Shown here: in pieces, positions 9,601-58,807 of the stretch
Position numbering within the stretch: the stretch's first letter is position 1
Layout: each line of letters begins with the position of its first letter
Assembly (NCBI GenBank): GCA_014905635.1
Contig: JABVCE010000003.1
Span: 1 to 64,000, forward strand
Reading direction: 5' to 3'
DNA: 64,000 nucleotides
Source: Scenedesmus sp. PABB004
Taxonomy: Eukaryota
Translations under genes and position numbers: made by a program
Notes under the pieces: model-generated
What the model was told of the DNA's origin: nothing
Seen by the model: the letters and a program-made list of their open reading frames with translations, nothing else
The model's database searches: none

Positions 9601-9850
9601 GCAGCGGAAACGGCGCACGGCAGCGCTGCGCCGCGGCGCCGCCGAGCGGCGCGCGCGCGGGCGGCGCGCGGCCCGCGGCGCGGCGCGGCCGCCGGCGGCC
9701 GACCTCTGCGGCGCAGCGCGTGGCCGGGCAGCCTGTTGGAGCCCCGCACGCCCGCTCCCAGGGGCGGCGGGGCAGCGGAAACGGCGCACGGCAGCGCTGC
9801 GCCGCGGCGCCGCCGAGCGGCGCGCGCGCGGGCGGCGCACGGCCCGCAGC
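679..9850. repeat. Tandem satellite, 172-bp monomer, ~53 copies, ~88% GC
   Basis: GGAAAC motif ends at 6000, 6172, 6344, 6516... (period 172). Monomer GGAAACGGCGCACGGCAGCGCTGC...GACCTCTGCGG...CCTGTTGGAGCCCCGCACGCCCGCTCCCCAGGGGCGGCGGGGCAGC. Central copies appear identical; edge copies carry small indels. Confidence 0.98.
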
Positions 9851-12129: not shown

Positions 12130-15100
12130 ATGCAGGACCACAGGGACGCAGGAACGGAGGCGGCTGCAGCCGGCGTCAGGGCCACAGCGGCCACGCCGGG
12201 CTCGCCTGCCGTGCGCCCCTGTGGTCCTGGCGTCGGCGGGCCGCTCTACGTGTGCGTGGGCGGCGCGTGGCGGACCATCACCGCGACAAGCTCGGGGTTG
12301 GGCCGTCCGCCGCCGGGCCCGCACCGGGGCCGGACTACGCCTGGGTGGAGGGGGCCTGGCGCCGCGCGGCGGCCCTGCCGACCCCGGCGGGGCCGCCGGA
12401 GCGGCGTGCTGGGGGCGCGCGCCTGCCCGGCAGCACTGGCCGCGCGCGCGCTGCACCCACCGCCGCACCTGCCCACGCGCCGCCTGCCACCGCCGCCCGC
12501 CGCCGCACGACAGGTCATGCCCAAGGCCGCCCCGCGGCGGTCGCGCAGCGTGCGGCCCCGCCTTGTGCGCTGGGGCTCTCTGCCCTGGTGTTTGGCGTCG
12601 GCCCCGAGGATGCCATCGACGGCGGCAACCCCGCGCGCAGCAAGCTCTCCGAGGCCGTCCGGCGGGCTATTGCAGCGGGGGCTGATGCCGACACGCTCAC
12701 GTTGGCGGCGGCCGCGCTGGCCGCGGGGCGCATGCAGTGGATGGGCAGCACGCGTGCGGCGCAGCGCCGCCGCGTCATGCGTGTGCGCCTGCAGCGCATC
12801 CCCAGCGCCCACCGCGCTGCGCTGCTCCAGCACCGCGCGGCGCTGGCGGCGGCGCTGCGCGCGCAGCTCGGCTGGCGCCTCGTGGTCTGCGAGGACGGCC
12901 GCGCCCTGCCTGCTCAGCCGCCCCTGCCCACAGACGCCAACCCCTACGCAGCGCTCGCCGATGCTGCCGCCGCCGAGGCGGCGCCGGACAGCGGCGCCGA
13001 GCGCCGCGCGGCTCCCCCGCGCCTGCACGGCAGCATTGTGTGCAAGCACTTTGCTGGCCACGGCGACTTCTACGGCGTTGTGCTCAAGATCCGCGGCGCC
13101 CGCGGCCCCTACGCCTACCGTGTGCACTACACCGACGGCGAGGACGAGACGATGACGGAGGAGGAGGCGCGGGGCCACCTTGCCGGCAGCGTACCAGCAG
13201 CGCACGCGGTGCACGCGCTGCGCGCGCGCCTGCTGCCGCCGACGCCCGCAGATGGCGTGGTCGTCAAGAAGTACTTCCGGTCGCACCGGCAGCACTTTCA
13301 CGGCGTGCTCACCGTCCGGCCGCCCTTCTTTGCCGTAGCCTACACCGACGGCGACGCGGAGGACATGGACGCCGACGAGGCTGCGCGGCACGCGGTCGCT
13401 GACGCGCCCGAGCTCGCGCCGCACTGGGCCGGGCTCGCCGCGCGCGGCGCGCGCGCTGACCTCTACCCCCTTGCCGCCGCCGCGGCCGCTCAGCTCGCGC
13501 TTGGCGCCGACGCGCCCGAGGCGGCGCCGGCCGCTGCGGCCGCCGCCCCGGCTGCCGGGGCGGCGGCCGCCGACGTGCCGCTCGCGCCGGAGCGCGTCCC
13601 GGCGGCCGACAACGCAGCGCGGGCGCGCCGCGCGTGTCCCGCCTACACCGACCGCCGCATGCGCCGCCGCCACACAGGCCTCGTACGCGCCGCCAACCTG
13701 GCGTGGGCCCGCGCGGGGCTCCGCGTGGCGTGCATCAACGTCTGCGGCATGACCAGGCTGAAGGCTGCCGAGCTCGCCGCTGCTACGACGGCGCTCTGCA
13801 TCGACATCCTCGCCGTCGTCGAGACCTGGGAGGGCCACCCCTGCGTCGCCCACGAGCTGCCTGGCTACACCTTCATCGGCAAGCCGCGCAGCCGGGGGCA
13901 GGGCGGGGGCGTGGGCTTTTACGTCGCGCGCGCGCTGGCCCCGCTCGTGCGCGCGCACGCCGACACGCAGCTGCCCGAGGCGCTCTGGCTGGAGCTGCGC
14001 CGCGGCGGCAGCGCCGCGACCGCGCGGCCGGCGTCTGTCGGCGTCGTCTACCTGCCGCCGGCGTCGCTGGAGAGCGCCGCGCTGCGGGCCGACACCTACG
14101 CGCAGCTGCAGACGGACATCCAGAGGTTCCAGGAGCGGGGCGCGGTGCTGGTGCTGGGCGACTTCAACAGCCGCGTGGGCAGCAGCGCGCCAGCGGAGCA
14201 GCAGGCGGACCAGCCGCCGGCGCGCATCGGGCAGTGGGGGAGAGCGGCGCGCCCGACGCGGCGGGCCAGGCCCTGCTGGCCATGCTCGACGCCACTGACC
14301 TGTACGCCCTCAACGGGCGCGCGCCCACCGCCACCGGCCTGCCTGCCTACACCCGCGCCCGCCTCGTGTGCGGCGCTGACGGCACGCACACCGAGCAGTG
14401 CTCGGTGCTCGACTACGTCCTCGCGCCCGCGGCGTGGGCGCTCCCCTCCAGCCGCGGCCCGGCGCCCTGCGCCCTGACCGTGGCCGACGATCGGCGCATC
14501 ACCAAGTCTGACCACCTGCTGCTGTGGACCTGCCTGCCTCACCCCGCCGCCCGCGCGCGCGCCCCCGCGGGCCTGCGCCGCCGCGTCGCGCGCACCGACC
14601 TGCTCAAGCCGGTCCCGGGGCAGCGCGATGCGGGGCATGCCGATGCCTACCGCGCGGAGCTCGCCGAAGCGCTGGCCGACTATGCCGACGACGTGGCTGC
14701 CCTCGCCGACCAGGTGGGCAGCGCGCTGCTGCCGGCGCGCGAGGCGTGCGCGCGCGCCAAGGCTGCGCTGTGCGATGCCATTTGGACGGTGGTCGATGGC
14801 AGCGTTGGCTACAGGGAGGTGCGCTCGGGCGGTGGCGGCGGCAGCGCCGCCGCCGCGCGGCGCATCTTCACGCCGGCGGTCCAGGCCGCCGTGCAGGCGC
14901 GCCGCGACGCCGATGTCGCGCTGGCGGCCGCCCGGGGGGCGGCCGCCGGCGGCGACGCTGACGCCGCCCCTGCCCAGGCTGCTGCCGAGCTTGCCGCCGC
15001 GCGGGACCAGCTGTGCGCCGCACAGCGGGCTGTCAAGTCCGCCGTGGCGGCTGCGCGCGCAGCGGAGCTCGGCCGCCGCGTTGACGCGGTTCACGCCCGT

Positions 15101-17890
15101 CACGCGGCAGGCGACGGCAAGGGCATGTGGGAGCAGCTGCGCCAGATTGCCGGCACTGCCAGGCGGGGCCCTGGCGGCCCCGCAGCGCTGCGCGCTGCTG
15201 CCAGCACTGGCATGGTTGTGGGCGAGCAGCAGATCGCAGACGCCCTGGCAGCGCAGTACGCCAGTGTCAGCGACCCCGCGGCGTTTGCTGCCGGGGCAGA
15301 CTTTGACGAGCAGTGGCGCGAGCAGGTCGAGGCGGACGTGGCGCGCTACCGCGCCGCCGCCTCTGACCCCAGCGGCAGCGACAGCGAGCAGGACCCCCTC
15401 AGCGCCGACATCACCGCCGCCGAGGTCGCAGCCCAGGCGCAGGCCCTCTCCAACAACAAGGCCCCCAGCCCGCTCGACGGCGTCACCAACGAGCTGCTCA
15501 AGTACGGCGGCGAGCCCCTTTGGGGCGCGCTGGCCGCCTTCTTCAACCTGCAGTTCACCCTGGAGACCAAGGCCCAGACCGCCGGCGTCATCACCCCGAT
15601 CTACAAGCGCGGCGACCCGACCGACCCCGCCAACTACCGCCCCATCACGCTCGGCTCCGCGGTGGACAAGCTCTACAACCTCGTGCTCAACAAGCGCCTC
15701 ACCGACCACCTTGAAGGCCACGGCCTGCTGCACGACGCGCAGCAGGGCTTCCGGCCCGGGCGCAGCGCCGCCGACAACATCTTCATGCTCACCTCCTGCC
15801 TCGACGCCCGCGCCGCGCAGGGACTCGACACCTACGTACTGTTCCTTGACATCGCCAAGGCCTACGACACCGTGTGGCGCTCCGGCCTGCTTCACAACCT
15901 CTGGCGCGTGGGCGTGCGCGGCCGCCTGTTCCGCGTGCTCGCCAACATGACCGACCGCACGCGCAGCATGGTGCGGCACCGCGGCGCGCTGTCCACAGCC
16001 TTTGAGCCGGGCCTTGGGTGGGAGCAGGGCGACACGCTGGCGACTACGATGTTCAACGTCTTCATCAACGCCGTGCTCCAGGAGGTGTGGGCCGCCTGCC
16101 CGGGCGTGCCGCTGCCCGCCGCGCCCGCGCCCGCGCCCGCCGCGCCGCCCGCGCCGCCCGCCGGCGCGGCGCCACCCGCGCCCGAGCCAGGCGCCGCCGA
16201 CGACAAGCTGGTCGCGCTCCTCTTTGCGGACGACTGCGCCAGCCTTGCGGCCGGCCCGGCGGAGATGCAGCAGCTCCTTGGCGCCACGCGCGCCGCGCTC
16301 GCCCGCTGGCGGCTCAAGGCCAGTGTCAGCTCGGCGGACGCGTCCAAGACAGCGGTGATGGTGGTGCCGGGGGGCCGCACCCGGCGTGCCGTCGCTGCGG
16401 CGGCTGCTGCCGCGGCGGCCTACCAGTGGTCGTGGGGCGCGGAGCAGGTGCCGCGCGTCACTGGGTACAGGTACCTGGGCGCGTGGCTGACGGCCGATCG
16501 CAGCGCCCGCAGCTGGGACGCCCACCTGCAGCGCCGCAAGGCTGCTGCGGACAAGGCGTTCTGGGCTCAGTCGGCGGTGCTGCGCGAGCGGCGCCTGCCG
16601 CTGCGCCTGCGCCTGCTCACGCTCACGGGCGTGGTGCAGCCTGTGTTGACGCACGCGGCCCAGGTCTGGGCCCGCCCCACGGTCGAGCGCCGCGCGGAGC
16701 TCGACTCGTGGCAGGCGGGGCTGGTGGCGCGCATGACCGGGTGCCCGCCCAACGTGTCGCACGCGTGCCTGCAGCAGGAGCTGGGCATCACCCCGCTGCA
16801 TGTCGTCTGCGACACCCTCATGCTGCGCTACTGGCACCGCCTGCGCGCCCTGCCAGCCGACCGCCTGTTGCGCCGTGTTGCCGACGCCTGGCCCGCCACG
16901 CCGTGGTGGAAGGGCGTGGGCGGCCTCCTGCGGGACTACGGCGTCGATGTTGTGGCTACTGCTGGCATGAGCCGCAACGAGTTTGCTGCTCACCTTTGCG
17001 ACCTTGCTGGCGACCACATCGATGGCGCCTGGGAGGCCGCCGCCGGCCGCGGCTCGGTGGCGCGGCGCTACCGGGAGGCCTTTGGCAGCGGCGTCTTCTC
17101 TACTCGCTCCTTCACGCGCCGCGCCGGCGTGCCGTGCGCCCGGGATTACCTGGGCTGGCTCTGCAGCCCCGGCGGCCCGCGGCGCGGCCGGCCGGCGGAG
17201 CTGCTCATGCGCCTGCGCATGGAGTGCCTCCCGCTGCGCGCTGCCCACAGCCACGCGCGCCGGGGGGAGTCGATCGCGCGGCAGGCGGAGCGAGAGCGCT
17301 GCCCCTGCTGCGCTGCGCGCGCGCCCGAATCGGCCGCGCACTTTCTCTTTGAGTGCGGCGCGCCCGGCCGCCCTGCGCGCCTCGTTGCGCTGCTTGCGGA
17401 CCTCCGTGCCAGCGGCGGGGGCGCGCATGCTGGCGCGCTGGCTGCGCACCTGCGTGCGGCTGGTGTTGAGATGGCGGCTGGCGGCAGCCAGGAGCTGGAG
17501 GCTGGAGCTGGCGGCGGCGGCAGCGGCAGCGTCAGCGACCCCGGCGTCGTGGCTAGCGCGGCGGCCCCTCGGGCTGCTGACGCAGGCGCGGCGGTCAGCA
17601 TCAGCGATAGCGGCGTCACGGCTGATACGGCGGCCCCTCGGGCTGATGATGTCAGCGCGGCGGTCAGCGTCAGCAGCGTCTCTGCTGGTGCGGCGGCCCC
17701 TCGGGCTGCCGTTACCGGCGCGGCGAGTCGGTGTGCAGCACTGGAGCAGGCTCGGCGTTATCTGCTTGGTGACCTGCTGCAGGATCAGCTTGCTGTTCAC
17801 TCTGTGGCAGATTATGTGATGGACATCTGGAAGATGCGGGACACCGTCCTTAAGGGGCGCGGGACCAATGGGCGCGAGCCTGTGGTGTAA
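12130..17890 (+). CDS. Retrotransposon polyprotein: ORF1-like RRM region, 2x Tudor-like, APE endonuclease, reverse transcriptase, Cys/His Zn finger (frame changes near 12320 and 14236-14240)
   Basis: APE motifs: CINVCG, DILAVVETW, GGGVGFYV, VYLPP, VLGDFNSRVG, LDYVL, SDH. RT motifs: NYRPITL, QQGFRPGRS, LFLDIAKAYDTV, QGDTLA, LFADD, YRYLG. C-terminal CPCC...ESAAHFLFEC. The start codon is inferred. Confidence 0.85.
17520..17710 (+). repeat. Degenerate in-frame 60-69-bp tandem repeat in the RTEX C-terminus (AAPRA x3)
   Basis: CGGCGGCCCCTCGGGCTG recurs at ~17558, ~17628 and ~17691. Confidence 0.7.
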
Positions 17891-18119
17891 CTATCTTATC
17901 TTATCTTATCTTATCACCTGGTCTCCTTGGGCGCCCGTTGGGCGTTGGCCTCTGGCTGTGCCGTTGGGTGATGTGTGGGCCCCCTCTCGGGGGGCGCCGG
18001 GGCGCGGTTTTTAACGAGGGGTTGCTGCGCTCTTCCCGTTGGAGTTTTTTTCAGTGGGCTGCCCCTGGGCCTCGGTCCTTGTCTGGTCACCCATTGTAAC
18101 CAAAAAAAAAAAAAAAAAA

Positions 18120-19187: not shown

Positions 19188-20139
19188 AAAGATAAAGATA
19201 AAGATAGTTACACCACAGGCTCGCGCCCATTGGTCCCGCGCCCCTTAAGGACGGTGTCCCGCATCTTCCAGATGTCCATCACATAATCTGCCACAGAGTG
19301 AACAGCAAGCTGATCCTGCAGCAGGTCACCAAGCAGATAACGCCGAGCCTGCTCCAGTGCTGCACACCGACTCGCCGCGCCGGTAACGGCAGCCCGAGGG
19401 GCCGCCGCACCAGCAGAGACGCTGCTGACGCTGACCGCCGCGCTGACATCATCGGCCCGAGGGGCCGCCGTATCAGCCGTGACGCCGCTATCGCTGATGC
19501 TGACCGCCGCGCCTGCGTCAGCAGCCCGAGGGGCCGCCGCGCTAGCCACGACGCCGGGGTCGCTGACGCTGCCGCTGCCGCCGCCGCCAGCTCCAGCCTC
19601 CAGCTCCTGGCTGCCGCTAGCCGCCATCTCAACACCAGCCGCACGCAGGTGCGCAGCCAGCGCGCCAGCATGCGCGCCCCCGCCGCTGGCACGGAGGTCC
19701 GCAAGCAGCGCAACGAGGCGTGCAGGGCGGCCGGGCGCGCCGCACTCAAAGAGAAAGTGCGCGGCCGATTCGGGCGCGCGCGCCGCGCAGCAGGGGCAGC
19801 GCTCCCGCTTCGCCTGCTGCGCGATCGACTCTCCCCGGCGCGCGTGGCTGTGGGCAGCGCGCAGCGGGAGGCACTCCATGCGCAGGCGCATGAGCAGCTC
19901 CGCCGGCCGGCCGCGCCGCGGGCCGCCGGGGCTGCAGAGCCAGCCCAGGTAATCCCGGGCGCACGGCACGCCGGCGCGGCGCGTGAAGGAGCGAGTAGAG
20001 AAGACGCCGCTGCCAAAGGCCTCCCGGTAGCGCCGCGCCACCGAGCCGCGGCCGGCGGCGGCCTCCCAGGCGCCATCGATGTGGTCGCCAGCAAGGTCGC
20101 AAAGGTGAGCAGCAAAACTCGTTGCGGCTCATGCCAGCA
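19188..20139 (-). mobile_element. 5'-truncated RTEX-like copy (~950 bp)
   Basis: Near-identical reverse complement of ~16960-17890 with a (CTTTAT)n tail. TSD GTTGGAT at 19181-19187 and 20140-20146. Confidence 0.95.
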
Positions 20140-20408: not shown

Positions 20409-21107
20409 AGCATGTTGGAGCCGCGCACCTCCGATCCGCAGGGGCGGCGGGCAGGGGAAACGGCGCACGGCAGCGCCGCGCCGCGGCGCCGGCGAGCGGC
20501 GCGCGGCCCGCGGCGCGGCGCGGCCGCCGGCGGCCGACCTCGGCGGCGCAGCCCGTGGCCGGGCAGCATGTTGGAGCCGCGCACCTCCACTCCGCAGGGG
20601 CGGCGGGGCAGGGGAAACGGCGCACGGCAGCGCCGCGCGGCGGCGCCGGCGAGCGGCGCGCGCGCGGGCGGCGCGCGGCCCGCGGCGCAGCGCGGCCGCC
20701 GGCGGCGGCCCTCGCCGGCGCAGCCCGTGGCCGGGCAGCATGTTGGAGCCGCGCACCTCCACTCCGCAGGGGCGGCGGGGCAGGGGAAGCGGGCTGATGA
20801 TGTCAGCGCGGCGGTCAGCGTCAGCAGCGTCTCTGCTGGTGCGGCGGCCCCTCAGGCTGCCGTTACCGGCGCGGCGAGTCGGTGTGCAGCACTGGAGCAG
20901 GCTCGGCGTTATTTGCTTGGTGACCTGCTGCAGGATCAGCTTGCTGTTCACTCTGTGGCAGATTATGTGATGGACATCTGGAAGATGCGGGACACCGTCC
21001 TTAAGGGGCGCGGGACCAATGGGCGCGAGCCTGTGGTGTAACTATCTTTATCTTTTAAAGCGGCGCACGGCAGCGCCGCGCCGCGGCGCCGGCGAGCGGC
21101 ACGCGCG
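20409..21107. repeat. Diverged monomers (~2.5) of the 172-bp satellite, interrupted by an RTEX fragment
   Basis: CATGTTGGAGCCGCGCACCTCC...GGGGAAACGGCGCACGGCAGCGCCGCGCCGCGGCGCC aligns to the main monomer with substitutions. Confidence 0.9.
20793..21057 (+). mobile_element. 5'-truncated RTEX-like copy (~265 bp) inserted in a satellite monomer
   Basis: Matches ~17642-17890 plus tail CTATCTTTATCTTTT. Probable TSD AAGCGG at 20787-20792 and 21058-21063. Confidence 0.9.
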
Positions 21108-21162
21108 ATGGGTTACAACTTGACAGCCCGGGTGTGGTGCCGATTGCCTCGGTGTGACAGCT

Positions 21163-23663
21163 TCAACTGCCCCACAGCCCCTGCAGCAGCTCGACTGCGG
21201 GCGTGACCTTCTGCGCCTTGGTGCGGCGGTCGTAGGTGCCGCGCTGCATGGCGAGGCTGTGGCCCATGTACATTGCCAGTGCCTCCATCTCCGCCTCGCT
21301 CGTGCCCTGCTGCCTGCAGCATGGCGAGGCACGCGGCGCGAGCGGTGCGTGCGCGCTGCAGCCAGGCCAGGCCGAGCCGGGCCGGTGCGCCGCGGGCGGG
21401 CGGTCCGCGCGCGCAGACCGCGGCGGCGGCGCGGCGGTCCCACCTGAGGTGCGTGACGATCATGTCGCGCACGAGGTGCGGGTGCGTGGCCTTGCCCGTG
21501 AGGCGCAGCGCGGCCTGCTTGAAGGTGTAGTACACCGCGTTCTCGTCCATGGCCGCCCCGCTGCGCGGCTTGACAAAGAGGCGCGGGCTGGCGGGGCGCA
21601 GCTCGACGCGCCAGGTGTGGATGAAGGCCTCCAGCTCGGGGTAGATGAACGGCGCGATCACCAGCGCGGGGCGGTCACCGTACTGCTTGCCCGTCTTGTA
21701 GTCGCCCGGGCCGTGCTTGATCACCCACGCGCCGTCTGCGCGGCGCAGCAGCGTGCGGCCCACCTCGAGCTCGCGCAGCGTGCGCTGGCGGTCGGGCACC
21801 ACGCTGAGGATGGCGACGATGAGGTAGCGCTGCAGCGACGCGGCGACCTCGCTCCGCGCGCGCGGCTTGCCGCCGGGCGTCAGCCCTGCCGGCGCGGCAC
21901 GGTGCGGCACGGCACGGCACGGTGCGGCGCGGCGCGGCGCGCCTCGGCGGCAGGGCGGCGGCGGCCGCCGCCGGACGCGCCCGCGCGCGCTGCCAGGCGG
22001 GGGGCGGTGCCGCCCCCGCGCGCGGCGCGCGGGCCCGCCGCCCCGGCCTCACCTGCGCACTCGGCGCGCAGCGCACGCACCATGCCCTGGAACTCGCCCC
22101 ACTCCAGCCACTTGAGCGACTCGTCCATCACGCGCGGCGCCTTGTCGGCCGCCTTCTGGGCGCCGCGCTGCATGGCAACGAGCTCGGCCACCACCTCGAC
22201 GTCGTGGTACGGCCGGGCCTTGGAGTCGCCCAGCGGCTGCAGCGCGCGGCGCGGCGCAGGGGAGGGGTGATGTGGCCCACGGCCGCGCGTGCCGGCTGGG
22301 GCCCTGAACGCGCGCGGTTCGCGCGCAGGCCAGGCGGCCGCTTGCCTGCGCCAGGTCGTGGTAGAGGAAGCGCGCCACGTGCACGGCGGCCTTGATCGGC
22401 AGCGTGGCGGTGCGGGCGGCGGTGCCACGCGTGGTCTCGCGCCAGCGCTGGTAGTCGAGCAGCAGGCTCACGCCCTCGCGCCCCGAGCTCGGCAGCAGCG
22501 TGCGCAGGCTGAGCTGCTCCAGCGGCACGCCGCGCACGCGGTGTACGTAGCCCAGCATCAGCCTGCGGCGCGGGGACGCTCAGCGGCGGCGGCGGCGGCG
22601 GCCATTGCGAGGTGCGCAGCGAGCTGAGCCCCATGCCGGACGCGCGCTGCTGCAGCGGCGGCCTCACTTGACGTAGTGCGCGGTGACGGTGCGGAAGGTC
22701 ACCGGCTGCAGCGGCTGCGCAAGCTGCCCGTAGAAGCACGACGTGGAGAAGCGCTCCAGCTCTGCCAGCTCGGCCCGCAGCGCGGGCGTCATCTCCGAGT
22801 CCTGCGTTGGGCCGGCGGCGGCGCTGTGGCGAGCGAGCGCGGCACGGGCCGGGGCGGCGCACGCGCGCCAGCAGCACTGCGGCCGGGGCTGCCCGCACCT
22901 TCAAGCTGTAAGACGCCCTGCTCTGCAGCGGTGTAACGCGCACGCTGGTTGCTGGGGCGTTTCTGTCACCCTGGAACAAGCTGGCGACCGCCGGCATGCG
23001 GCGCTGCATGATGTCAGCCGGCAGCGGCGGCTCCGCGGCGCTGGCGGGCAGCACCGACCGCTCCTGCTGCGGCTGGTCAATTTTGCCGCTGCTGCTGCCG
23101 CTGTCGCTGCTGCTGCCTGGAGCTGCTGAGCACTGCAGCTGCTCCCTCATCAGCGCCCACAGCTTGACCGGCACGCCCAGCAGCGACAGCTCCTCCTGCG
23201 CCGCGGCGCGGCGGCGGCGGCGGCTTGGCCACGGCGCGGTGCAGCACGCCCAGCCGCACTTGTCTGGCGGCGCCGCGCACCTGCGTCATCGCTGCCACGT
23301 CGCCTGCCGTCTTGTACCAGTTCTCCTTGAGCCGCCGCACCTGCCGGCGGCGCACGGCGCGGCCGCTCAGCCGCCGACGGCGACCGGCGCGCCAGGTGGC
23401 CCCGCCACGCGTGCGCGGCGCCAGCCGGCGCTGCCGCGCGCACCCACCAGCTCTGCATCTGCCGGGCCGGGCTGCCGGCCGGCCGCCGACAGCGCGGCGG
23501 TCATGGCCTCTGCCAGGTCCGACTGCGGCGTCACGCCCGGCGCTGCTGCGCACGTGCTGCCGCCGCGCCGGCCGCCCGCCTTGCCAGCGTGCCTGGCACG
23601 CGCACATCCGGGCAAGACCTGCACGAGCAGCTGCCGGCCCTGCTGCAGCAGGCGGGCGCGCAT
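21163..23663 (-). CDS. Tyrosine recombinase (phage-integrase superfamily), copy A, 8 exons, putative organelle transit peptide
   Basis: The spliced product has the catalytic set PDRQRTLREL (R), DYKTG (K), PHLVRD (H-x-x-R), MGHS (H) and GTYDRR (Y). N-terminus MRARLLQQGRQLLVQVLPGCARARHAG. TGTAA on the minus strand at 21113-21117. Confidence 0.85.
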
Positions 23664-26600
23664 CGTGCCGCCCGCCGCGGCGGTTGGTTGGCGCCGCCGC
23701 TGCCCCGCGCTCGCGCCCGGCGCGCCACGCAGCCGGCCGCGGCGCGAGTGGGTGAGACGTGAGCTGTATCGCGTGTCACGTCGCGCGAGAGAGCGTCAGG
23801 CCCCGGCGCACAGCGGCAGGGCGGCGTCAGCGGCTCGGCAGCAGGCGCAGCTGCTGGCACGCCGCGGCGCCGGCGCTGGAGCTGCTGGTGCTGCTGGGGC
23901 TGCTGCGAGCGCCGGAGAGAGCGAGGGGCGGTGGCGGCTGCGCGCTCGGCGTGGACTAAGGGAGCTGCGCGGTCACACGACAGCCAGCGCGGCGGTTCAC
24001 GCGCGCAACGCCGCTGCCGGCGCGCACCGGCGGCGCGCCAGCTTCCGCCGCCGCGCCCTCACTCGCCCTGATGCTTGCTGAGCCGCATCATGAGGTCCAC
24101 CGCGGGCGTGACCTTCTGCGCCTTGGTGCGGCGGTCGTAGGTGCCGCGCTGCATGGCGAGGCTGTGGCCCATCAGCAGCGCCAGCGCCTCCATCTCCGCC
24201 TCGCTCGTGCCCTGCTGCCTGCAGCATGGCGAGGCACGCGGCGCGAGCGGTGCGTGCGCGCTGCAGCCAGGCCAGGCCGAGCCGGGCCGGTGCGCCGCGG
24301 GGCGGGCGGTCCGCGCGCGCAGACCGCGGCGGCGGCGCGGCGGTCCCACCTGAGGTGCGTGACGATCATGTCGCGCACGAGGTGCAGGTGCGTGGCCTTG
24401 CCCGTGAGGCGCAGCGCGGCCTGCTTGAAGGTGTAGTACACCGCGTTCTCGTCCATGGCCGCCCCGCTGCGCGGCTTGACAAAGAGGCGCGGGCTGGCGG
24501 GGCGCAGCTCGACGCGCCAGGTGTGGATGAAGGCCTCCAGCTCGGGGTAGATGAACGGCGCGATCACCAGCGCGGGGCGGTCACCGTACTGCTTGCCCGT
24601 CTTGTAGTCGCCCGGGCCGTGCTTGATCACCCACGCGCCGTCTGCGCGGCGCAGCAGCGTGCGGCCCACCTCGAGCTCGCGCAGCGTGCGCTGGCGGTCG
24701 GGCACCACGCTGAGGATGGCGACGATGAGGTAGCGCTGCAGCGACGCGGCGACCTCGCTCCGCGCGCGCGGCTTGCCGCCGGGCGTCAGCCCTGCCGGCG
24801 CGGCACGGTGCGGCACGGCACGGCACGGTGCGGCCCGGCGCGGCGCGCCTCGGCGGCAGGGCGGCGGCGGCCGCCGCCGGACGCGCCCGCGCGCGCTGCC
24901 AGGCGGGGGGCGGTGCCGCCCCCGCGCGCGGCGCGCGGGCCCGCCGCCCCGGCCTCACCTGCGCACTCGGCGCGCAGCGCGCGCACCATGCCCTGGAACT
25001 CACCCCACTCCAGCCACTTGAGCGACTCGTCCGCGACGAGCGGCGCGCCCTTTGCCGACTTGTGGGCGCCGCGCAGCATGTTGGCCAGCTCGGCCACCAC
25101 GCCCAGGTCGCGGTACGGCGGCCGGGCGCCCGGCTGAGGCGCGCGGCGCGGCGCGTCGGCTGGTCAGTCGGGGCGGCGCCGCGCGGCGCCGCACGCCCCG
25201 CGCGCCGCCGCGTGCCGCCGCCGCGCGCGCCTGGCTTGCGTCGTGGTAGAGGAAGCGCGCGAGGGCGATGGCGGCCTTGATCGGCATCAGCGCGCTGCGC
25301 GGCGACGTGCCACGCGTGGTCTCGCGCCAGCGCTGGTAGTCGAGCAGCAGGCTCACGCCCTCGCGCCCCGAGCTCGGCAGCAGCGTGCGCAGGCTGAGCT
25401 GCTCCAGCGGCACGCCGCGCACACGGTGCACGTAGCCCAGCAGGCTCCTGCGGCGGCGGCCAGTGGCACCGGGGCTTGACCACGGCGCGCGCGCAGCTGG
25501 CAGGCCCGCAGGCGGCGCAGCACGGGCGGCCAGCGGCAGGCCGGCCGTCGCCCCTCGCACCGCAGCTCCGAGGCGTAGCAGCTGTAGGAGATTGCCCGCA
25601 GCGGCTCCACGCGCTGGCCATAGAACACACCGCAGCTGAACTGCTGCAGCGCGTCAAACTCAGCCCGCAGCGCGGGCGTGAGCTCCTCTGCCTGCCCCCG
25701 GCGGCGCGGGCGAGGGCGCGGCGGCGCGGGGTGCAGCTCAGAGCCAGAGCAGGGCCCCGACCTGCAAGCAGCCCTGCCCTGCCAGTCGGGCGCTGCGGCG
25801 CGCCGCACCCGCATGCCGTACGCCTGCGCGTACGAGGCCGCGCCCGCCCGCGTCACGCGCACCCCCGACGCCAGCGGCGCAGCGGCGCGCGGCATGCGGC
25901 GCTGCATGATGTCACCCGGCAGGTCGTCCAGGGCGGCCGCCTCAAACAAGGGCCGCTGCGGGCTGGCCGCCGCGGCCGCCGAGGCGGCGGCTGCGCTGCG
26001 AGCCAACACGGCACGTGCGCGCGCCTCCACGGTGGCGGGCCCAGCGGGCTGCTGCATCGGCGGGGGCTCGGCGACCATGGCCTTGATGCTGAACCACAGC
26101 TTGACCGGCACGCCCAGCAGCGACAGCTCCTCCTGCGCCGCGGCGCGGCGGCGGCGGCGGCTTGGCCACGGCGCGGTGCAGCACGCCCAGCCGCACTTGG
26201 TCTGGCGGCGCCGCGCACCTGCGTCATCGCTGCCACGTCGCCTGCCGTCTTGTACCAGTTCTCCTTGAGCCGCCGCACCTGCCGGCGGCGCACGGCGCGG
26301 CCGCTCAGCCGCCGACGGCGACCGGCGCGCCAGGTGGCCCCGCCACGCGTGCGCGGCGCCAGCCGGCGCTGCCGCGCGCACCCACCAGCTCTGCATCTGC
26401 CGGGCCGGGCTGCCGGCCGGCCGCCGACAGCGCGGCGGTCATGGCCTCTGCCAGGTCCGACTGCGGCGTCACGCCCGGCGCTGCTGCGCACGTGCTGCCG
26501 CCGCGCCGGCCGCCCGCCTTGCCAGCGTGCCTGGCACGCGCACATCCGGGCAAGACCTGCACGAGCAGCTGCCGGCCCTGCTGCAGCAGGCGGGCGCGCA

Positions 26601-27010
26601 TCGTGCCGCCCGCCGCGGCGGTTGGTTGGCGCCGCCGCTGCCCCGCGCTCGCGCCCGGCGCGCCACGCAGCCGGCCGCGGCGCGAGTGGGTGAGACGTGA
26701 GCTGTATCGCGTGTCACGTCGCGCGAGAGAGCGTCAGGCCCCGGCGCACAGCGGCAGGGCGGCGTCAGCGGCTCGGCAGCAGGCGAAGCTGCTGGCGCGC
26801 CGCGGCGCCGGCGCTGGAGCTGCTGGAGCTGCTGGGGCTGCTGCGAGCGCCAGGGAGAGCGAGGGCGGTGGCGGCTGCGCGCTCGGCGTGGACGAAGGGA
26901 GCTGGGCGGCCGCGACAGCCAGCGCGGTTCACGCGCGCAACGCCGCCGCCGGCGCGCCCTGGCGGCGCGCCAGCTTCCGCCGCCACGGCCCCACTCGCCC
27001 GGCTGCTTGT
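21190..27010. repeat. Tandem segmental duplication, ~2.94-kb unit containing the recombinase gene and its upstream region
   Basis: 23155-24078 matches 26095-27010, and 21190-22125 matches 24100-25030, including introns. Confidence 0.9.
24059..26601 (-). CDS. Tyrosine recombinase, copy B (tandem paralog), 8 exons
   Basis: Same exon structure and catalytic motifs (LHLVRD, LMGHS, TYDRR). ATG is 2938 bp from the copy A ATG. Ends ...MMRLSKHQGE*. Confidence 0.85.
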
Positions 27011-28103: not shown

Positions 28104-28682
28104 TCACGCCTCCTTGACCAGCACGCCGCTCTCCGAGGTGTAGATGCCGTCGAGGAACTTGCGGATGTCCTTGTTCTTGACGAGGCACTGCTGGTGGATG
28201 AGCGCGGTGCACTGGCTCACGTTCTCGATGTCGTTGCCCTCGAGGATGAGCTCGTCCTTGACGGCGTCGCTGCGGCGGATGGTCACGCCCGGCTTCATCA
28301 CCACCACGCGCACGCGCTTCTCGCCCAGGAAGTTGCGAATCTCGACCTTGGTGCCCTTGTCCTCGATGTTGATGTTGATGGGGAAGTGGGCGTACACCAG
28401 GCGCATCTTGTACTCGAAGCCCTTGGTCACGCCGGTGATGAGGTTCTGCACGTGGCTGCAGGCCGTCCGGATGGCGGCCAGGCGCTTCTTCTTGCCAAAG
28501 TGGCACTCCACCTTGAGCTTTTTCTCGCCCTCCTCCTCGAACAGGTACATGTCCACAGCCAGGTGGCTGAAGTCGCGCTGCAGCACGCCGCGGGGGCCCT
28601 TCACGCGCACGCGGCGGGCCTTCACCTCGATCGAGACGCCGTCGGGCACCGTCACGGTGCCGTTGCTAATGAGGAGCTTCAT
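28104..28682 (-). CDS. RPL9: 60S ribosomal protein L9 (uL6), intronless CDS
   Basis: [16 protein letters not shown]...[12 protein letters not shown]...[16 protein letters not shown]...[18 protein letters not shown] (minus) at 27911-27915. Confidence 0.97.
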
Positions 28683-29050
28683 GGCGCCACACCGTGCGGA
28701 GCGACCTTGCGGCGGCGGCGCGGGAGAGGGCGGGCGGGCGGCGCGGGCGGGCAGAAGGGGGGCGGCGGGCGCGCATGGCGGCCCAGCGCGGTTTAGGCAC
28801 TGCGCTCTGCACACCGGGCGCCCCCGGGGCGCGCGCATGGACGGCCCAGCAGCACAGCGGCACCCCGGCAGCACCGGCGGCAGCCCGGCCCGATCGGCTC
28901 GGGGCGCGGCCATCGCAGCAGGCGGGCCAAGCTCCCAAGCGCCAAGCCCGTGGTGCCCGCGCGGGCCCCTGACGGCCCGCAGTCGCACACCCCGCCGGCC
29001 GGGCGGGCGCCCCAGGCCCACCGCGGCGCGGCAGGGCGCAGGCCAGGGGC

Positions 29051-32000
29051 ATGGCCGAGGAGCAGGGCCCCGCCGCGGGCGCTGAGCGCTTTGCGGGCTA
29101 CAACACCTCCATCGCCGTGGACGAGGAGGATGAGGACGAGCCCACGATGGCGCCCAGGTGCGGCGGGGCGGCCCGGGGGCGCGCCGGCGGGCGCGCGAGT
29201 GCGGCAGCAGCGGCGGCGCGCGCGCGCGGGCGGCGCCCGCGGCGCCGCGCCCGCGCCCGCTTGGGCGGCGCAGCGCCCGATCCCGGCCCGCGCGCCGACG
29301 CCGCCGCCAAACGCGCACGCACGCCCTCTCCCCGCGCAGCGCGGCGCAGCTGCACGCGCTCAAGTACGGCGCGCCCGACCCGGACGGCGACGAGGACGGC
29401 GAGGTGCGCGGCGCCCGCACACGCGGCAGGGAGGGGGGCAGCGCGCCGCGTCCGGCGCGCCGAGCGCAGCCAGCAGCAGCTTGCGGGCGCGCACGCGAGC
29501 AGCAGCAGCGCCAGCAGCGGCGCCAGCAGCGCCAGCAGCGCCAGCAGCAGCAGCAGCGGCGCCGCTCGCGCGGCGCGCGTGGCGGGGCGAGCCCGCCGCA
29601 GCGCTGTTCCGCCGGCCAGCGCCCGCTGCTGACCGCACGCGCGCGCGCCGCTCCCGCGCCGCCGCAGCCGACGGGCTTCACCAAGCCCGGGCGCATCACG
29701 GACCGGGAGGACGACTACAAGAAGCGCCGGCTGGGGCGCATGCTGTCGCCGGAGCGCAACGACGCGTTCCTGAGCGGCGACAAGACGCCCGACGCGCGCG
29801 TGCGCACGTACGCCGACGTCATGCGCGAGCAGATGCTCGCGCGCGAGCAGGCCAACACGCTGCAGAACATCCGCGACAAGCAAAAGGCCGAGGTCGACGC
29901 CGGCGCGGCGGTCGCTGCGGTGCAGGCGGCGGCGGCGGTCGCGGGCGCCGCGGCGGCGGCGGCGGTCGGCCAGAAGCGGCGCAACCGCTGGGACCAGGCG
30001 GCCGACGCCGCCGACGGCAAGCGCGCCAAGGCGGACGGCGGCTCCGACTGGGACGCGGTGGAGGCCACGCCGGCGGCGGTCAACCGCTGGGACGCGACGC
30101 CCGGCGGCGCGCTGGGCGGCGCCACGCCCGGCCCCGCGGCGTGGGACGCCACGCCCGGCGGCGCGCTGGCGGGCGGCAGCAGCAGCAGGTGGGACGCCAC
30201 GCCGGCGGCCTCGCACGGCGTGGACGCCACGCCCAGCGCGCGCCGCAACCGCTGGGACGAGACGCCGGCACCGGTGAGGCGGGGGTGCTCGGCGCGACTG
30301 CGGCGGGACGGGCGGCAGCGGGCGCCCGCGCGGCGGCGCCAGCGGCAGCGGCGGCGGCAGCCGCGGCGACAGCGGCGGCGGCAGCCGCGCGCGCCTCCTG
30401 GCTCACCCGCTGCCCTCCCCGCGCGCGCAGGACATGGGGCTCGGCGCCACGCCCGCTGGCGACAAGAAGCGCTCGCGCTGGGACGAGACGCCCGCGCCCG
30501 GCGCAGCAGCCGCTGCGTACGGCGCGACGCCCTCCGCGGCGGCGCTGGGCGGCGCGTTTGGCGCGACGCCCGCGTTCACGCCCATGGGCGCGGCGGGGCT
30601 GGAGACGCCCGCCGCGGCGGGCATGGTGGGCGCGGGCGGCATGACGCCGGACCAGTGGCACGCCGACAAGGCGGCGCGCGAGATGTACGAGCGCAACCGG
30701 CCGCTGAGCGACGAGGAGCTGGACGCGCTGCTGCCGGGCCCCGAGGCGGGCTACAAGGTCCTGCCGCCGCCGGCGGGCTACGCGCCCATCTACACGCCCG
30801 CGCGCAAGCTCATGGCCACGCCCACACCCAGCATGTTTGGCGGCGCGCCCGGCACGCCCATGTACAGCATCCCCGCGGAGAGCGAGGGCCTGAAGCAGAT
30901 CTATGGCGGCGCGGAGATGCCCGAGGGCCTGCCCGAGCTCAAGCCAGAGGACGAGGCGGTGCGCGCCGCGCCCGCCGCGCCCGCGCGCCGGGCGCCTAGC
31001 CCGCCCGCGCACGCGCGCGCGCGCCGCCGCCGCGCTCCGCTGCGTCCGCCGACGCGCCGGCCCCGCCGCCGGCGCCGGCGCGCGCGCGCAGGCGTTTGGC
31101 AAGCTGCTGCAGGCGGTCGACGAGGCGTCGCTGAGCGCGGAGGAGGCGAAGGAGCGCAAGATCATGAAGCTGCTGCTCAAGGTCAAGAACGGCACGCCGC
31201 CGCAGCGCAAGAGCGCGCTGCGCCAGCTCACCGAGAAGGCGCGCGACTTTGGGGCGAAGGCGCTGTTCGACCAGATCCTGCCGCTGCTCATGACGCCCAC
31301 GCTGGAGGACCAGGAGCGCCACCTGCTCGTCAAGGTCATCGACAGGTGCGCCGCGTGTCGCCGCACCCGCGCGCGCCGCGCGACGCCCGCTCAGCCGCGC
31401 GGGGCGGCCGCGCCGTGCCTGTGCCCGCGCCCGCGCGCCCGCGTCCGACTGACGCCGCCGCCGCCGCCGCCGCTGCGCGCGCCCTGGGCGGCCGCGTCGC
31501 CCAGGATTCTGTACAAGCTGGACGAGCTGGTGCGGCCGTACGTGCACAAGATCCTGGTGGTCATCGAGCCGCTGCTGATCGACGAGGACTACTACGCGCG
31601 CGTGGAGGGGCGGGAGATCATCGCCAACCTCTCCAAGGCCGCGGGCCTGGCCCAGATGATCGCCGCGATGCGCCCCGACATCGACAACATCGATGAGTAC
31701 GTCCGCAACACCACCGCGCGCGCGTTCAGGTGCGGGCGCGGGCGAGGGCGGCCCCCCGCGCGCGCGCACGGCGGCCCGCGCGCGGCGGCGGCGCGACGCC
31801 GCAGCCGGCCGCCCGCGGCGCGGCGGGGCGGCTGCGGCGAGCACGCCACCGCCGGCGCCGCCGCTGACGCGCGGCGCGCCGCGCAGCGTGGTCGCGAGCG
31901 CGCTGGGCATCCCCGCGCTGCTGCCGTTCCTCAAGGCCGTGTGCCTGAGCAAGAAGAGCTGGCAGGCGCGGCACACGGGCATCAAGATCGTGCAGCAGAT

Positions 32001-35000
32001 CGCCATCCTCATGGGCTGCGCGGTGCTGCCGCACCTCAAGGCGCTCGTGGACATCATCAAGCACGGCCTCAAGGATGACAACATGAAGGCAAGCACCCCG
32101 AGCCCCGCGCCGCCCGCGCCGCCCGCCCGCCGCGGCCCGCGCCGCGCCACGCTGCCGGGGCACCGCGGCCGCCGCCGCCGCCGCGGCCGACCCGCCCCGC
32201 CCCGCCCCGCCCCGCCCCCGCCCCGCCCCCGGCCTTGCCCCCGGCCGCGCCCCCGCGCGCAGGTCAAGACCATCACCGCGCTGAGCCTCGCGGCGCTGGC
32301 GGAGGCGGCGTCGCCGTACGGCATTGAGTCGTTTGACGACGTGCTCGAGCCGCTCTGGCGCGGCATCCGCAGCCTGCGCGGCAAGGTGCTCGCGTCGTTC
32401 CTCAAGTGCATCGGCTTCATCATCCCGCTCATGGACGGGGAGCACGCGTTTTACTACACGCGCGAGGTCATGCTCGTGCTCAAGCGCGAGTTCCAGACGC
32501 CCGACGAGGAGATGAAGAAGATCGTGCTCAAGGTGACGCGCGGCCGCCTGGGCGTGGGTGCGCGTGCGGGTGGCTGGGTGTGCGTGTGTGTGTGGGGGGG
32601 GGGGCACGGCGCCGAGGGCGCGGCGCCGAGGGCGCGGCGCCGAGGGCGGGGCGCTCGGCGCGCGCGCAGCGCGCCGACCCGCACGCGCGCCGCCGGCCCG
32701 CGCGCGCTCGCGCGCGCGCCGCAGGTGGTGCAGCAGTGCGTGGGCACGGAGGGCGTGGAGCCGGACTACATCCGCACCGAGGTGCTGCCCGAGTTCTTCC
32801 GCTGCTTCTGGCAGCGCCGCATGGCCCTCGACCGCCGCAACTACCGCGCGCTCGTGGAGACGACCGTCGCGCTCGCAAACAAGGCGCGCCGCCGCCGCTG
32901 CCGCCCCCGCATGCGCCTGCGCGCGCCGCCGCCCCGCGCCCGCGCGCGCCGCGGCCTTGGCTCGCGGCCCACGCCGCGCCGCGCGCGCCGCGCGCCGCGC
33001 GCAGGCGGGGTGCAGCGAGATCGTGAGCCGCGTGGTGGAGGACCTGAAGGACGAGGCGGAGCCGTACCGGCGCATGGTCATGGAGACGATTGACAAGGTC
33101 GTCAGCGCGCTCGGCGCGGCAGACATCGACGCGCGGCTGGAGGAGCAGCTCGTGGACGGCATCCTCTACGCCTTCCAGGAGCAGGCGCGCGCGCGGCCCG
33201 ACGCGGCGGCGCGCGGCGCGCGGCGCGGCTGCTGCGCCGCAGCGCGCGGCCGGAGGCGCGCCCGCGCCGGGCGCTCACTTGCGCGGCGCTCACGCGCGCC
33301 GCGCCGCAGGTGGGCGACGACGCCAACGTGATGCTCAACGGCTTTGGCACGGTCGTCAACGCGCTGGGCAAGCGCGCCAAGCCGTACCTGCCCCAGATCT
33401 GCGGCACCATCAAGTGGCGGCTCAACAACAAGGCGGCCAAGATCCGGCAGCAGGCCGCCGACCTCATCGCGCGCATCGCGCCCGTGCTCAAGGCGTGCGA
33501 GGAGGAGCAGCTGCTGGGCCACCTCGGCGTCGTGCTGTACGAGTACCTCGGAGAGGAGGTGAGGGCGGCGGGCACGCGGGGGCGGGGCGCGCAGCCGGGC
33601 GCGCCGCGGCCGCGCTCGCGCTGGCGCCGCCGCTGCAGCCGCCCGGCGCTGCGCTGCGCGCGCGCGCGCGCGCGCGGGGCTCGGCTCGCCGCCGGCGCCC
33701 CCGCCGACCTGTGGTCCGCGCCGCGCGCGCCGCCCCGCCGCGCGCGCGCAGTACCCCGAGGTCCTGGGCAGCATCCTGGGCGCGCTGAAGGGCGTGGTCA
33801 ACGTGATCGGCATGACGCGCATGACGCCGCCCATCAAGGAGCTGCTGCCGCGGCTGACGCCGGTGCTGAAGAACCGGCACGAGAAGGTGCAGGAGAACTG
33901 CATCGACCTCGTCGGCCGCATCGCCGACCGCGGCGCGGAGTACGTGCCCGCGCGCGAGTGGATGCGCATCTGCTTTGAGCTGCTCGACATGCTCAAGGCG
34001 CACAAGAAGGCCATCCGCCGCGCGACGGTCAACACGTTTGGCTACATCGCCAAGGCCATCGGCCCGCAGGACGTGCTCGTGACGCTGCTGAACAACCTCA
34101 AGGTCCAGGAGCGCCAGAACCGCGTGTGCACGACCGTGGCCATCGCGATCGTCGCCGAGACGTGCGCGCCGTTCACGGTGCTGCCCGCGCTGATGAACGA
34201 GTACCGCGTGCCCGAGATCAACGTGCAGAACGGCGTGCTCAAGGCGCTGAGCTTCATGTTTGAGTACATCGGCGAGATGGGCAAGGACTACATCTACGCC
34301 GTCACGCCACTGCTCGAGGCAAGCCGCACACCGCGCGCGCCGCGCGCGCCGCGCGCCGGCAGCGGCGGGCGCGGCGGCAGGGGCGGCAGCAGGGGCGGCA
34401 GGGGCGGCACGGGCGGCAGGGGCGGCCGGGCCGCCCCGACCGCTCGCGCGCTCGCTCGCCACGCGCCCACCCGCCCCGCGCCGCCGCGCCGCCGCGGCGC
34501 CGCGCAGGACGCGCTGTCGGACCGCGACCTGGTGCACCGCCAGACCGCCGCGACGGTCGTGCAGCACCTCGCGATGGGCGTGCCGGGGCTGGGGTGCGAG
34601 GACGCGCTGACGCACCTGCTCAACTATGTGTGGCCCAACGTGTTTGAGGAGACGCCGCACCTCATCAACGGCGTCATGGGCGCCATCGACGGCTGCCGCC
34701 TCAGCCTCGGGCCATGCATCGTGCTGCACTACACGCTGCAGGCGCGCGCGCGCCGCCGCCGCCGCGGCCGCGCTGGGCCTGTGCCTGGCCTGCCCGCGCG
34801 CGCGCCGGCCGCGCGCCCGCCGCTGCGCCGCTCACGCGCGCGCGCGCCTCGGCCCGTCGCCGCCGCGCGCACGTGCGCGCAGGGCCTGTTCCACCCCGCG
34901 CGCAAGGTTCGGTCGACGTACTGGAAGGTCTACAACAACCTCTACATCGGCGCGCAGGACGCGCTCGTCGCGTTCATGCCGCGCTTTGCAGACAGCGAGG

Positions 35001-35047
35001 ACGGCGCAAACACCTACACGCGCCACGAGCTCGACCTCCTGCTCTGA
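29051..35047 (+). CDS. SF3B1: Splicing factor 3B subunit 1, 14 exons
   Basis: RWDETP repeats, [85 protein letters not shown]. Confidence 0.97.

Positions 35048-58746: not shown

Positions 58747-58807
<61 letters not shown>

Follow-up and report, generated by a model that had tools for sequence, protein, structure and literature searches.

Concerted evolution and inferred divergence of specificity in a tandem pair of nuclear Cre-like recombinase genes of Scenedesmus sp. PABB004

The tyrosine recombinases known from eukaryotic nuclei either belong to mobile elements (Cryptons, DIRS, the 2-micron plasmid) or are domesticated remnants that no longer catalyze. What are two adjacent nuclear genes of a green alga that both keep a complete active site, and why are they nearly identical along some stretches and sharply different along others? 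The question is raised by genes B and A, a tandem pair of spliced tyrosine recombinase genes on the minus strand of contig JABVCE010000003.1 of Scenedesmus sp. PABB004 (assembly GCA_014905635.1), of which we analyzed positions 1 to 64,000 (hereafter, the window). An earlier sequence-only reading had proposed that the pair encodes domesticated recombinases with two half-site specificities that act on organelle DNA. According to our analysis, B and A are probably old tandem paralogues of a vertically inherited nuclear host gene, which underwent concerted evolution and whose specificities, we infer, diverged.

Gene models and a mosaic of converted and divergent tracts

The window has a G+C content (GC) of 72-88% in 2-kb steps. 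Alignment of the two halves of its minus strand between 27012 and 21100 to each other showed a tandem duplication of ~2.9 kb, and this strand carries two 8-exon genes, each free of internal stops according to splice-site models built by script. The features of the pair are as follows.

26601-24059, minus strand: gene B, the upstream copy; 8 exons, 571 amino acids (aa), Cre-like tyrosine recombinase
26601-26386, 26278-26219, 26132-25809, 25691-25561, 25447-25240, 25133-24959, 24791-24350, 24218-24059, minus strand: exons of gene B (script model)
23663-21163, minus strand: gene A, the downstream copy; 8 exons, 566 aa, Cre-like tyrosine recombinase
23663-23448, 23340-23281, 23195-22899, 22801-22668, 22562-22346, 22236-22053, 21885-21444, 21313-21163, minus strand: exons of gene A (script model)
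21113-21117, minus strand: TGTAA, 46 bases past the A stop; likely polyadenylation signal of gene A

The ends that the sequence-only reading had given for the pair (A stop and B ATG) proved exact. Introns of both copies are GT-AG with the sole exception of intron 5, which is GC-AG (donor GCAAGC) in both, and the exon 5/6 junction is the least certain part of both models. The models align without frame breaks to other green-algal homologues (B to P0003 and to the Tetradesmus copy B', A to the Tetradesmus copy A'; see below), and P0003, a transcript-derived orthologue, is continuous across the predicted exon 6/7 and 7/8 junctions. A tblastn search of the 64-kb window with protein A recovered two copies only, A and B. 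Short freshwater-metagenome contigs from three DNA runs, 97-99% alike, cover an A-specific stretch (22625-23189) and a B-specific stretch (25490-25749), which lends weak support to the existence of both types outside the window assembly.

No TGTAA, which we take to be the poly(A) signal of green algae, was found on the minus strand between the B stop and the A start. The B stop codon (24059-24061) sits in a donor-like context, GA/GTGAGG, which resembles the real exon 4 donor. Inspection of the window by eye found no in-frame donor/acceptor pair for a B-A fusion, the candidate acceptors being out of frame; a read-through or fused B-A transcript is conceivable.

Both models contain the full R-K-HxxR-H-Y set in order, as the sequence-only reading had described. 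The catalytic residues of gene A are one of the candidate arginines R402, R404 and R407 (PDRQRTLRE), K433 (DYKTGK), H506 and R509 (HLVR), H535 (MGHS) and Y544 (GTYDRR), and gene B carries the same residues numbered +2. Conservation was judged on an alignment of 80 homologues, in which each of these columns is either invariant or conserved to 90% or more. The same reading had noted an identical acid-free leader followed by a small helical module. The first 105 residues were found to be the same in A and B, the first 48 contain no Asp or Glu, and the module (RRLKENWYKTAGDVAAMTQEELSLLGVPVKLW) is present after the leader.

At the DNA level the duplication is a mosaic, set out below with helices lettered after Cre (see the next section).

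A 23175-23896 / B 26112-26834, minus strand: conversion block I, 99.4% identical (723 columns, 4 of them different); promoter/5' region, the leader exon (exon 1), exon 2, introns 1 and 2 and the first part of exon 3 (SAM-like module)
A 22539-23174 / B 25424-26111, minus strand: divergent tract 1, 52.6% DNA identity; linker, intron 3, exon 4 and intron 4, with helix A, the A-B loop and helix B up to its middle
A 22439-22538 / B 25324-25423, minus strand: conversion block II, 99% identical; end of helix B, B-C loop and helix C
A 22109-22438 / B 25015-25323, minus strand: divergent tract 2, 64.5% identical; helix D, D-E loop, intron 5 and helix E
A 21294-22108 / B 24199-25014, minus strand: conversion block III, 99.4% identical (816 columns, 5 of them different); last part of exon 6, introns 6 and 7, the catalytic core in exon 7 and the first part of exon 8
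A 21163-21293 / B 24059-24198, minus strand: C-terminal part of exon 8, of uneven identity (an identical stretch of 40 bases flanked by parts at 86% and 53%); YMGH (A) or LLMGH (B), last helix and tail

The near-identity of leader, catalytic domain and their introns, which had been noticed before, thus amounts to 99.4% in blocks I and III. In the proteins, 177 of 178 residues agree in the catalytic segment, and the only amino acid difference in the converted catalytic block is Pro505 in A (CCG, 21481-21483) against Leu507 in B (CTG, 24387-24389). The two N-terminal segments that had been quoted as divergent are both present, with a segment of 40/40 identical residues (C1) between them, and the comparison yielded a third A/B-specific part, the C-terminal tail from LAMYMGH/LALLMGH on, in addition to the low-complexity linker.

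Identical introns stand beside unalignable ones, a mosaic that points to conversion between paralogues of long standing; a young duplication with later local divergence would not leave this pattern and was rejected. Conversion tracts begin and end within exons, at structural boundaries (where the SAM-like module ends, halfway along helix B and where helix E ends), and not at exon ends.

Age of the pair and position of the A/B differences

The best match of a query from exon 7 (P0001) was P0002 of Tetradesmus obliquus, a protein of 1067 aa that is 79% identical in two matched stretches. P0002 is a fused model of B' followed by A', so that the copies stand in the same order as in the window. Identities among the four copies, by segment, were as follows.

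D1 (divergent): A/B 44%, A/A' 57%, B/B' 48%, A/B' 47%, B/A' 34%, A'/B' 40%
D2 (divergent): A/B 63%, A/A' 69%, B/B' 67%, A/B' 52%, B/A' 53%, A'/B' 46%
C1 (converted): A/B 100%, A/A' 72%, B/B' 69%, A/B' 69%, B/A' 72%, A'/B' 90%
C2 (catalytic, converted): A/B 99%, A/A' 77%, B/B' 75%, A/B' 76%, B/A' 76%, A'/B' 81%

Segment trees were built with three outgroups, Monoraphidium, Chromochloris and Raphidocelis. The D1+D2 tree joined window A with Tetradesmus A' (support 92/93) and window B with Tetradesmus B' (91/89), and the approximately unbiased (AU) test on these segments rejected the joining of the two window copies (p 0.003) and of the two Tetradesmus copies (p 0.0001). In the C1+C2 tree the copies clustered by species, and the AU test rejected A+A' (p 3e-5) and B+B' (p 7e-5). 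Two small characters follow the type and not the species: a one-residue insertion in helix B is common to A and A' and occurs in no other homologue, and LLMGH and PAVDLM near the C-terminus are common to window B and Tetradesmus B' only. These opposite groupings of divergent and converted segments argue for an old duplication followed by homogenization that spared the A/B-specific parts. On these trees, the duplication is placed before the split between the window alga and Tetradesmus and after the split from the single-copy Selenastraceae and Chromochloris lineages.

The same regions were homogenized and the same tracts were kept apart in both species. The SAM-like part is only 45% identical between A' and B' in Tetradesmus, and in the window it is 100% identical and A'-like; the identical leader is therefore a product of recent conversion. 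An assembly artefact behind the blocks of ~100% identity is unlikely because Tetradesmus groups the same segments by species too.

The fold was computed on the Chromochloris orthologue P0007 with the 80-sequence alignment, not on the window proteins. The AlphaFold2 model had a mean predicted local distance difference test score (pLDDT) of 86.9 and a predicted template modeling score (pTM) of 0.74. Its top Foldseek matches in the PDB were Cre-DNA complexes (E ~1e-6; template modeling score, TM, 0.64-0.68 on the target), and VIA-align returned XerA (Z 17.9), XerH (17.2) and Cre/Tre (16-17); Cre 20-341 was matched by residues 147-513 of the model. In the model, the core-binding and catalytic domains together form the Cre/Xer clamp fold, and helices 148-162, 175-194, 214-229, 235-252 and 272-290 match Cre helices A-E by order. 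At the place of the module the model has four short helices (9-55, pLDDT 93-95), homologue P0025 has Pfam SAM_1/SAM_2 matches there, and the module of the window proteins is split over three exons. Five parts follow one another from the N-terminus: leader, SAM-like helical module, disordered linker, core-binding domain (five helices) and catalytic domain. Among 12 full-length homologues scanned with Pfam PF00589 (cut-off 27.1 bits), P0002 (34.7 bits) and P0016 (27.8) passed and seven scored 14-23 bits; P0025, P0030 and P0070 gave no match to this model, nor did seven gene A exons scanned singly.

We mapped the 21 diagnostic positions, at which window A equals Tetradesmus A', window B equals Tetradesmus B' and A differs from B, onto these elements.

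Helix B holds 4 of them (in 20 columns), helix D 3 (in 18 columns) and helix E 2 (in 19 columns). Four more follow directly on the SAM-like module, the C-terminal region has 2, and one each falls in the linker, immediately ahead of helix A, in helix A, in the A-B loop, in the D-E loop and in the E-F linker. None falls in the B-C loop, helix C, the C-D loop or helix F, nor in any of the 153 columns of the catalytic core.

In Cre-loxP, helices B and D sit in the major groove, A and E touch neighboring subunits and the C-terminal helix docks on the neighbor; in XerC/XerD, the C-terminal ends control which partner cleaves. The sequence-only reading had located the divergence in the DNA-recognition region. 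On the model, divergent residues do fall on the helices that match Cre B and D, and others fall on A, E and the C-terminal tail.

These results can be assembled into a mechanism. Core green algae would carry the gene as a single listed copy that is inherited vertically. Given a Cre/Xer clamp fold and a complete active site, both proteins of the pair are taken to be active site-specific recombinases, which would cut and rejoin DNA through a 3'-phosphotyrosine intermediate. Since the duplication, gene conversion has again and again homogenized the promoter, the leader, helix C and the catalytic core together with their introns, very recently in this genome, and the tracts for helices A, B, D and E and for the C-terminal tail have stayed A-type or B-type. 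Since the parts so kept are those that read the major groove and contact other subunits in Cre/Xer, A and B are predicted to recognize different DNA half-sites or sites. By analogy with XerC/XerD, they may also act heteromerically, as a mixed tetramer on an asymmetric site. The pair would offer a clear case from nature in which concerted evolution leaves specificity tracts protected, and it marks residues that probably set DNA specificity or partner choice, which could be of use in engineering Cre-like enzymes and heterospecific recombinase pairs.

Several points weigh against these inferences. The ratio of nonsynonymous to synonymous substitution rates (dN/dS) between A and B is ~0.9 in D1 and D2 and 0.44 in D3, synonymous sites being strongly biased, and a value of ~0.9 fits relaxed constraint as much as functional divergence. 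Tracts, once diverged, can escape conversion without selection. The helix mapping rests on an orthologue model and on helix order. Finally, the Leu of B (HLHLVRD) replaces a Pro that is invariant in the 80 homologues and stands directly before the catalytic His; this change could weaken or regulate B, or it could be a sequence or assembly error.

The first two of these points belong to an alternative in which the A/B differences are meaningless, the copies being redundant duplicates whose tracts persist only because divergence itself blocks conversion. It is further favored by the unalignable introns and the low-complexity linker that the divergent tracts include, and by the SAM-like part, whose divergence in Tetradesmus and conversion in the window imply that the protected parts differ by species. 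This alternative is harder to reconcile with D2, where same-type pairs across species (69% and 67%) exceed cross pairs (52-53%), or with the clustering, in helices B, D and E and the tail, of the 21 positions where both species have one residue fixed in A and another in B. The A-specific insertion in helix B and the B-specific LLMGH were likewise kept in both species, and the tract borders follow structure rather than exon ends. We consider it unlikely that the differences lack functional meaning.

Family, place of action and neighborhood

The exon 7 query found 498 homologues, 120 of which are listed. Among these 120 of 498 matches, 23 named green-algal species have one match each; matches are clusters at 90% identity, which would hide very recent copies. 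The family occurs in green algae, diatoms, Amoebozoa and cyanobacteria, and it is of modest size: a profile search of 1.84 billion cluster representatives returned 455 proteins at E<=1e-30 and 1371 at E<=1e-10.

A first tree of 34 rows (29 named matches, both window copies, the two halves of the Tetradesmus fusion and a single cyanobacterial open reading frame, ORF; the 91 unnamed listed matches were excluded) followed class and order, with a Coccomyxa-Trebouxia group, Chlorellales, Chlamydomonadales and Sphaeropleales. In a second tree of 41 rows, four fragmentary rows were removed, 11 cyanobacterial or metagenomic rows were added and L003, one of five loci from cyanobacterial metagenome-assembled genomes (MAGs; L001-L005), served as root. 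The green algae formed one clade (support 97), which included two of the added metagenomic rows, and the named eukaryotes formed one clade (support 99) apart from the cyanobacterial/metagenomic group. In both Chlorella sorokiniana and Micractinium conductrix, the next gene downstream of the recombinase encodes saccharopine dehydrogenase, and this shared neighbor in two Chlorellaceae indicates a stable locus. P0013 (C. sorokiniana) and P0021 (M. conductrix) are annotated as 'saccharopine dehydrogenase' and consist of the recombinase (N-terminal) fused to a Sacchrp_dh_NADP protein. They are probably merged neighboring genes with a misleading public name, which can serve as a synteny marker.

In NCBIfam, no model fits the family. 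Pfam scans of the window exons and the 12 full-length homologues found no GCR1_C, DUF3504 or reverse transcriptase (RT) domain. A giant-virus or virophage origin was dropped, as 58 pattern matches in viral contigs included no relative. The five cyanobacterial MAG loci hold intron-less relatives that are 24-39% identical over ~330-390 residues and carry the signature motifs of the family. A primase-helicase gene and a ParM-like gene lie near the relative in L003 and an HNH gene lies near that in L001, so that these contexts look island- or plasmid-like; no tRNA gene, as a hallmark of integrases, was found beside the relatives in L001-L005. In L002 (a Stenomitos MAG), the full-length relative of 530 aa (5146-6738) is preceded by an overlapping ORF of 295 aa (4356-5243) in another frame. 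This ORF holds a second copy of the N-terminal core-binding-like region (LGWLYRIRGEPLATLSLECLVP...) and could be a frameshifted tandem duplicate or part of a protein with two DNA-binding domains.

Judged from domains, trees and neighbors, the family's behavior fits that of a host gene and not that of a Crypton or DIRS element. The genes do not appear transposon-like, and the label 'domesticated' is uncertain, the nearest non-eukaryotic relatives being cyanobacterial integrase-like genes and not Cryptons. In the collection searched, beyond which papers are possible, nothing published came up for the nuclear family or for five of its gene identifiers. A conserved, seemingly active, host-encoded Cre-like recombinase family of algae, duplicated here with protected specificity tracts, is thus apparently undescribed, and its intact active site and vertical green-algal inheritance point to an undescribed cellular job for site-specific recombination.

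Where would this job be done? We tentatively favor organelle DNA as the place of action, for example in multimer resolution or inversion. The window leader is basic and acid-free for 48 residues, and leaders before the conserved helix were measured by script in orthologue models.

Micractinium sp. CCAP 211/92: leader of 70 aa, Asp+Glu 1
Micractinium tetrahymenae: leader of 97 aa, Asp+Glu 3
Chlorella sorokiniana: leader of 64 aa, Asp+Glu 2
Chlorella ohadii: leader of 64 aa, Asp+Glu 1
Trebouxia: leader of 63 aa, Asp+Glu 3
Parachlorella: leader of 61 aa, Asp+Glu 2
Coccomyxa sp. Obi: leader of 37 aa, Asp+Glu 2
Tetradesmus B': leader of 45 aa, Asp+Glu 4

Similar leaders were seen by eye in Chlorella vulgaris, Nannochloris and Chlamydomonas incerta. 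Several observations count against import. The mature protein itself contains a further acid-free run, of 43 residues, and the genome has 75-80% GC, which makes leader composition weak evidence for targeting. Eight orthologue models begin at or near the conserved module without a leader, and four more are truncated. In addition, the N-terminus of the Acanthamoeba protein is acidic, and Amoebozoa carry the gene yet have no plastid. Organelle targeting of the green-algal proteins, which is suggested only by the acid-poor leaders that about half of the orthologue models have, appears somewhat the likelier case and no more.

The same observations feed an alternative in which the host recombinase acts in the nucleus, on repeats, on centromeric or subtelomeric arrays or in programmed rearrangements, and the leader is no targeting peptide. 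Beside the leaderless models, the acidic Acanthamoeba N-terminus, the plastid-less amoebae and the internal acid-free run of similar length, it can draw on P0025, which has a true Pfam SAM domain at the module position, SAM-like modules being typical of nuclear and cytosolic proteins. It has to contend with acid-poor, Ala/Ser/Arg-rich leaders of 37-97 residues before the module in eight models from six genera, with the similar leaders seen by eye in three further algae, and with closest non-eukaryotic relatives that are cyanobacterial, which is compatible with a plastid-related history. No nuclear localization signal or nuclear partner came up, in an analysis that included no systematic search for either. 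On balance, we regard nuclear action as unlikely.

The organelle reading can also be carried further. Algae and some protists may have a nuclear-encoded, organelle-imported Cre/Xer-like system of cyanobacterial kin that maintains organelle topology, with a two-subunit, XerC/XerD-like version in Scenedesmaceae whose DNA-reading surfaces are shielded from conversion. So broad a proposal is speculative, and we would not expect all of it to hold. How organelle multimers are resolved and isomers controlled without Xer is a question that this gene would make testable.

The surroundings of the pair bear on a last alternative. The sequence-only reading had seen no RT around the genes; this was not confirmed, since a long interspersed nuclear element (LINE) with an apurinic/apyrimidinic (AP) endonuclease and RVT_1 lies at 12018 to ~17890 on the plus strand, as a separate element on the other strand. 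The neighboring features are as follows.

12018 to ~17890-17897, plus strand: full-length LINE with Exo_endo_phos, RVT_1 and a PTM/DIR17-like Tudor domain
19201-20098, minus strand: 5'-truncated LINE 3' end
20790-21055, plus strand: 5'-truncated LINE 3' end, ~110 bases from the A stop
28107-29714, minus strand: Ribosomal_L6-domain gene, upstream of B; TGTAA at 27915-27911, minus strand
30278-35044, plus strand: SF3B1 (SF3b1 and HEAT domains), a housekeeping neighbor upstream of B

The full-length LINE ends in TGTAA and a (TATCT)n-like tail, and the two truncated 3' ends are 99% alike. The nested 3' ends recall the Zepp-like centromeric L1 elements described for green algae (PMC8226300). A 172-base satellite of ~88% GC fills 678-9872 (53.6 copies, 99% matches), and about two further copies and a partial one (20409-20792, 21049-21105) abut the truncated LINE ends beside gene A. 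The pair thus borders a satellite- and LINE-rich region that is possibly centromeric or subtelomeric. Far from the pair, arrays of a 15-base repeat (GGCGGCTGCTCCGCA/C) at 56366-56559 (12.9 copies) and 59438-59731 (19.6 copies) both lie inside a very long minus-strand open frame (54721-60699), which may be a repetitive coding region.

That the genes are recombinases of a Crypton-like or other tyrosine-recombinase mobile element, or of one recently immobilized, and the pair two adjacent element copies, could be argued from the intact active site, the adjoining repeats (LINE, truncated LINE ends, 172-base satellite), the patchy eukaryotic spread over green algae, diatoms and Amoebozoa, the plasmid- or island-like contexts of cyanobacterial relatives such as that in L003 and the active Cryptons of Chlamydomonas (PMC9977147), but we consider it very improbable in view of one match per named green-algal species among the matches listed, trees that follow host classification, a second species that has this B-A pair, with A and B tracts orthologous to those here, seven introns per gene, the TGTAA past A, a conserved neighbor gene in two Chlorellaceae, only two copies, adjacent, within the 64-kb window, proteins without a GCR1_C, DUF3504 or RT domain beside an endonuclease-type LINE on the other strand, and viral contigs without relatives.

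Comparison with known systems

DIRS, Ngaro and PAT-like retrotransposons share with the pair a eukaryotic tyrosine recombinase and an RT gene within a few kb, but the recombinase units here have no RT, RNase H or methyltransferase. Membership in DIRS was rejected, as the sole RT (RVT_1, 13460-17887, plus strand) belongs to the Exo_endo_phos LINE on the opposite strand, 3.3 kb off. Cryptons are likewise eukaryotic nuclear tyrosine recombinase genes and sometimes bear introns; the algal proteins differ from them in having no GCR1_C or DUF3504 domain, one match per species among the matches listed and a host-like tree. Animal DUF3504 genes reportedly do not have intact catalytic residues, unlike the algal genes. 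Cryptons, active ones included, are present in Chlamydomonas (PMC9977147; PMC3212892). The literature also has plastid-encoded recombinases.

In structure, the family resembles Cre of phage P1 and its variants such as Tre. The P0007 model shares with it the two-domain clamp fold over the whole length (root-mean-square deviation 3.6-4.5 over 284-299 residues), the N-terminal domain of five helices, the catalytic R-K-H-R-H-Y residues and, past the Tyr, a helix at the C-terminus. In contrast, identity to Cre is only 13-17%, the algal proteins have in addition a leader, a SAM-like module and ~90 residues of linker, which the model shows as disordered, and the algal genes are nuclear, intron-bearing host genes.

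XerC/XerD offer a parallel to the pair as a pair: like them, A and B are paralogues whose catalytic cores are almost the same and whose differences lie in the parts that would read DNA and contact the partner, and a role in resolving organelle multimers would be analogous. Most algae, however, have one gene and not two. A sequence-profile search of the PDB returned XerD only (E 0.36-0.41). The NCBIfam models for XerC and XerD (TIGR02224/TIGR02225) had no match in P0007, P0012 or P0117, and two cyanobacterial relatives scored 21-29 bits against cut-offs of ~330. By sequence, the algal family does not belong to XerC/XerD.

Finally, a cyanobacterial clade of 'site-specific integrases' (P0130 of Nostoc sp., P0123 of an Oscillatoriophycideae MAG and L001-L005) consists of intron-less ORFs of 410-630 aa in which no SAM-like module was seen, a difference from the algal proteins. 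From the core-binding domain to the C-terminus, its architecture is the same as that of the algal proteins, the motifs PDRQRT.RELE, YKT, NPHL.RD and YD.R are held in common, and in the tree rooted on L003 this clade is sister to the eukaryotic one.

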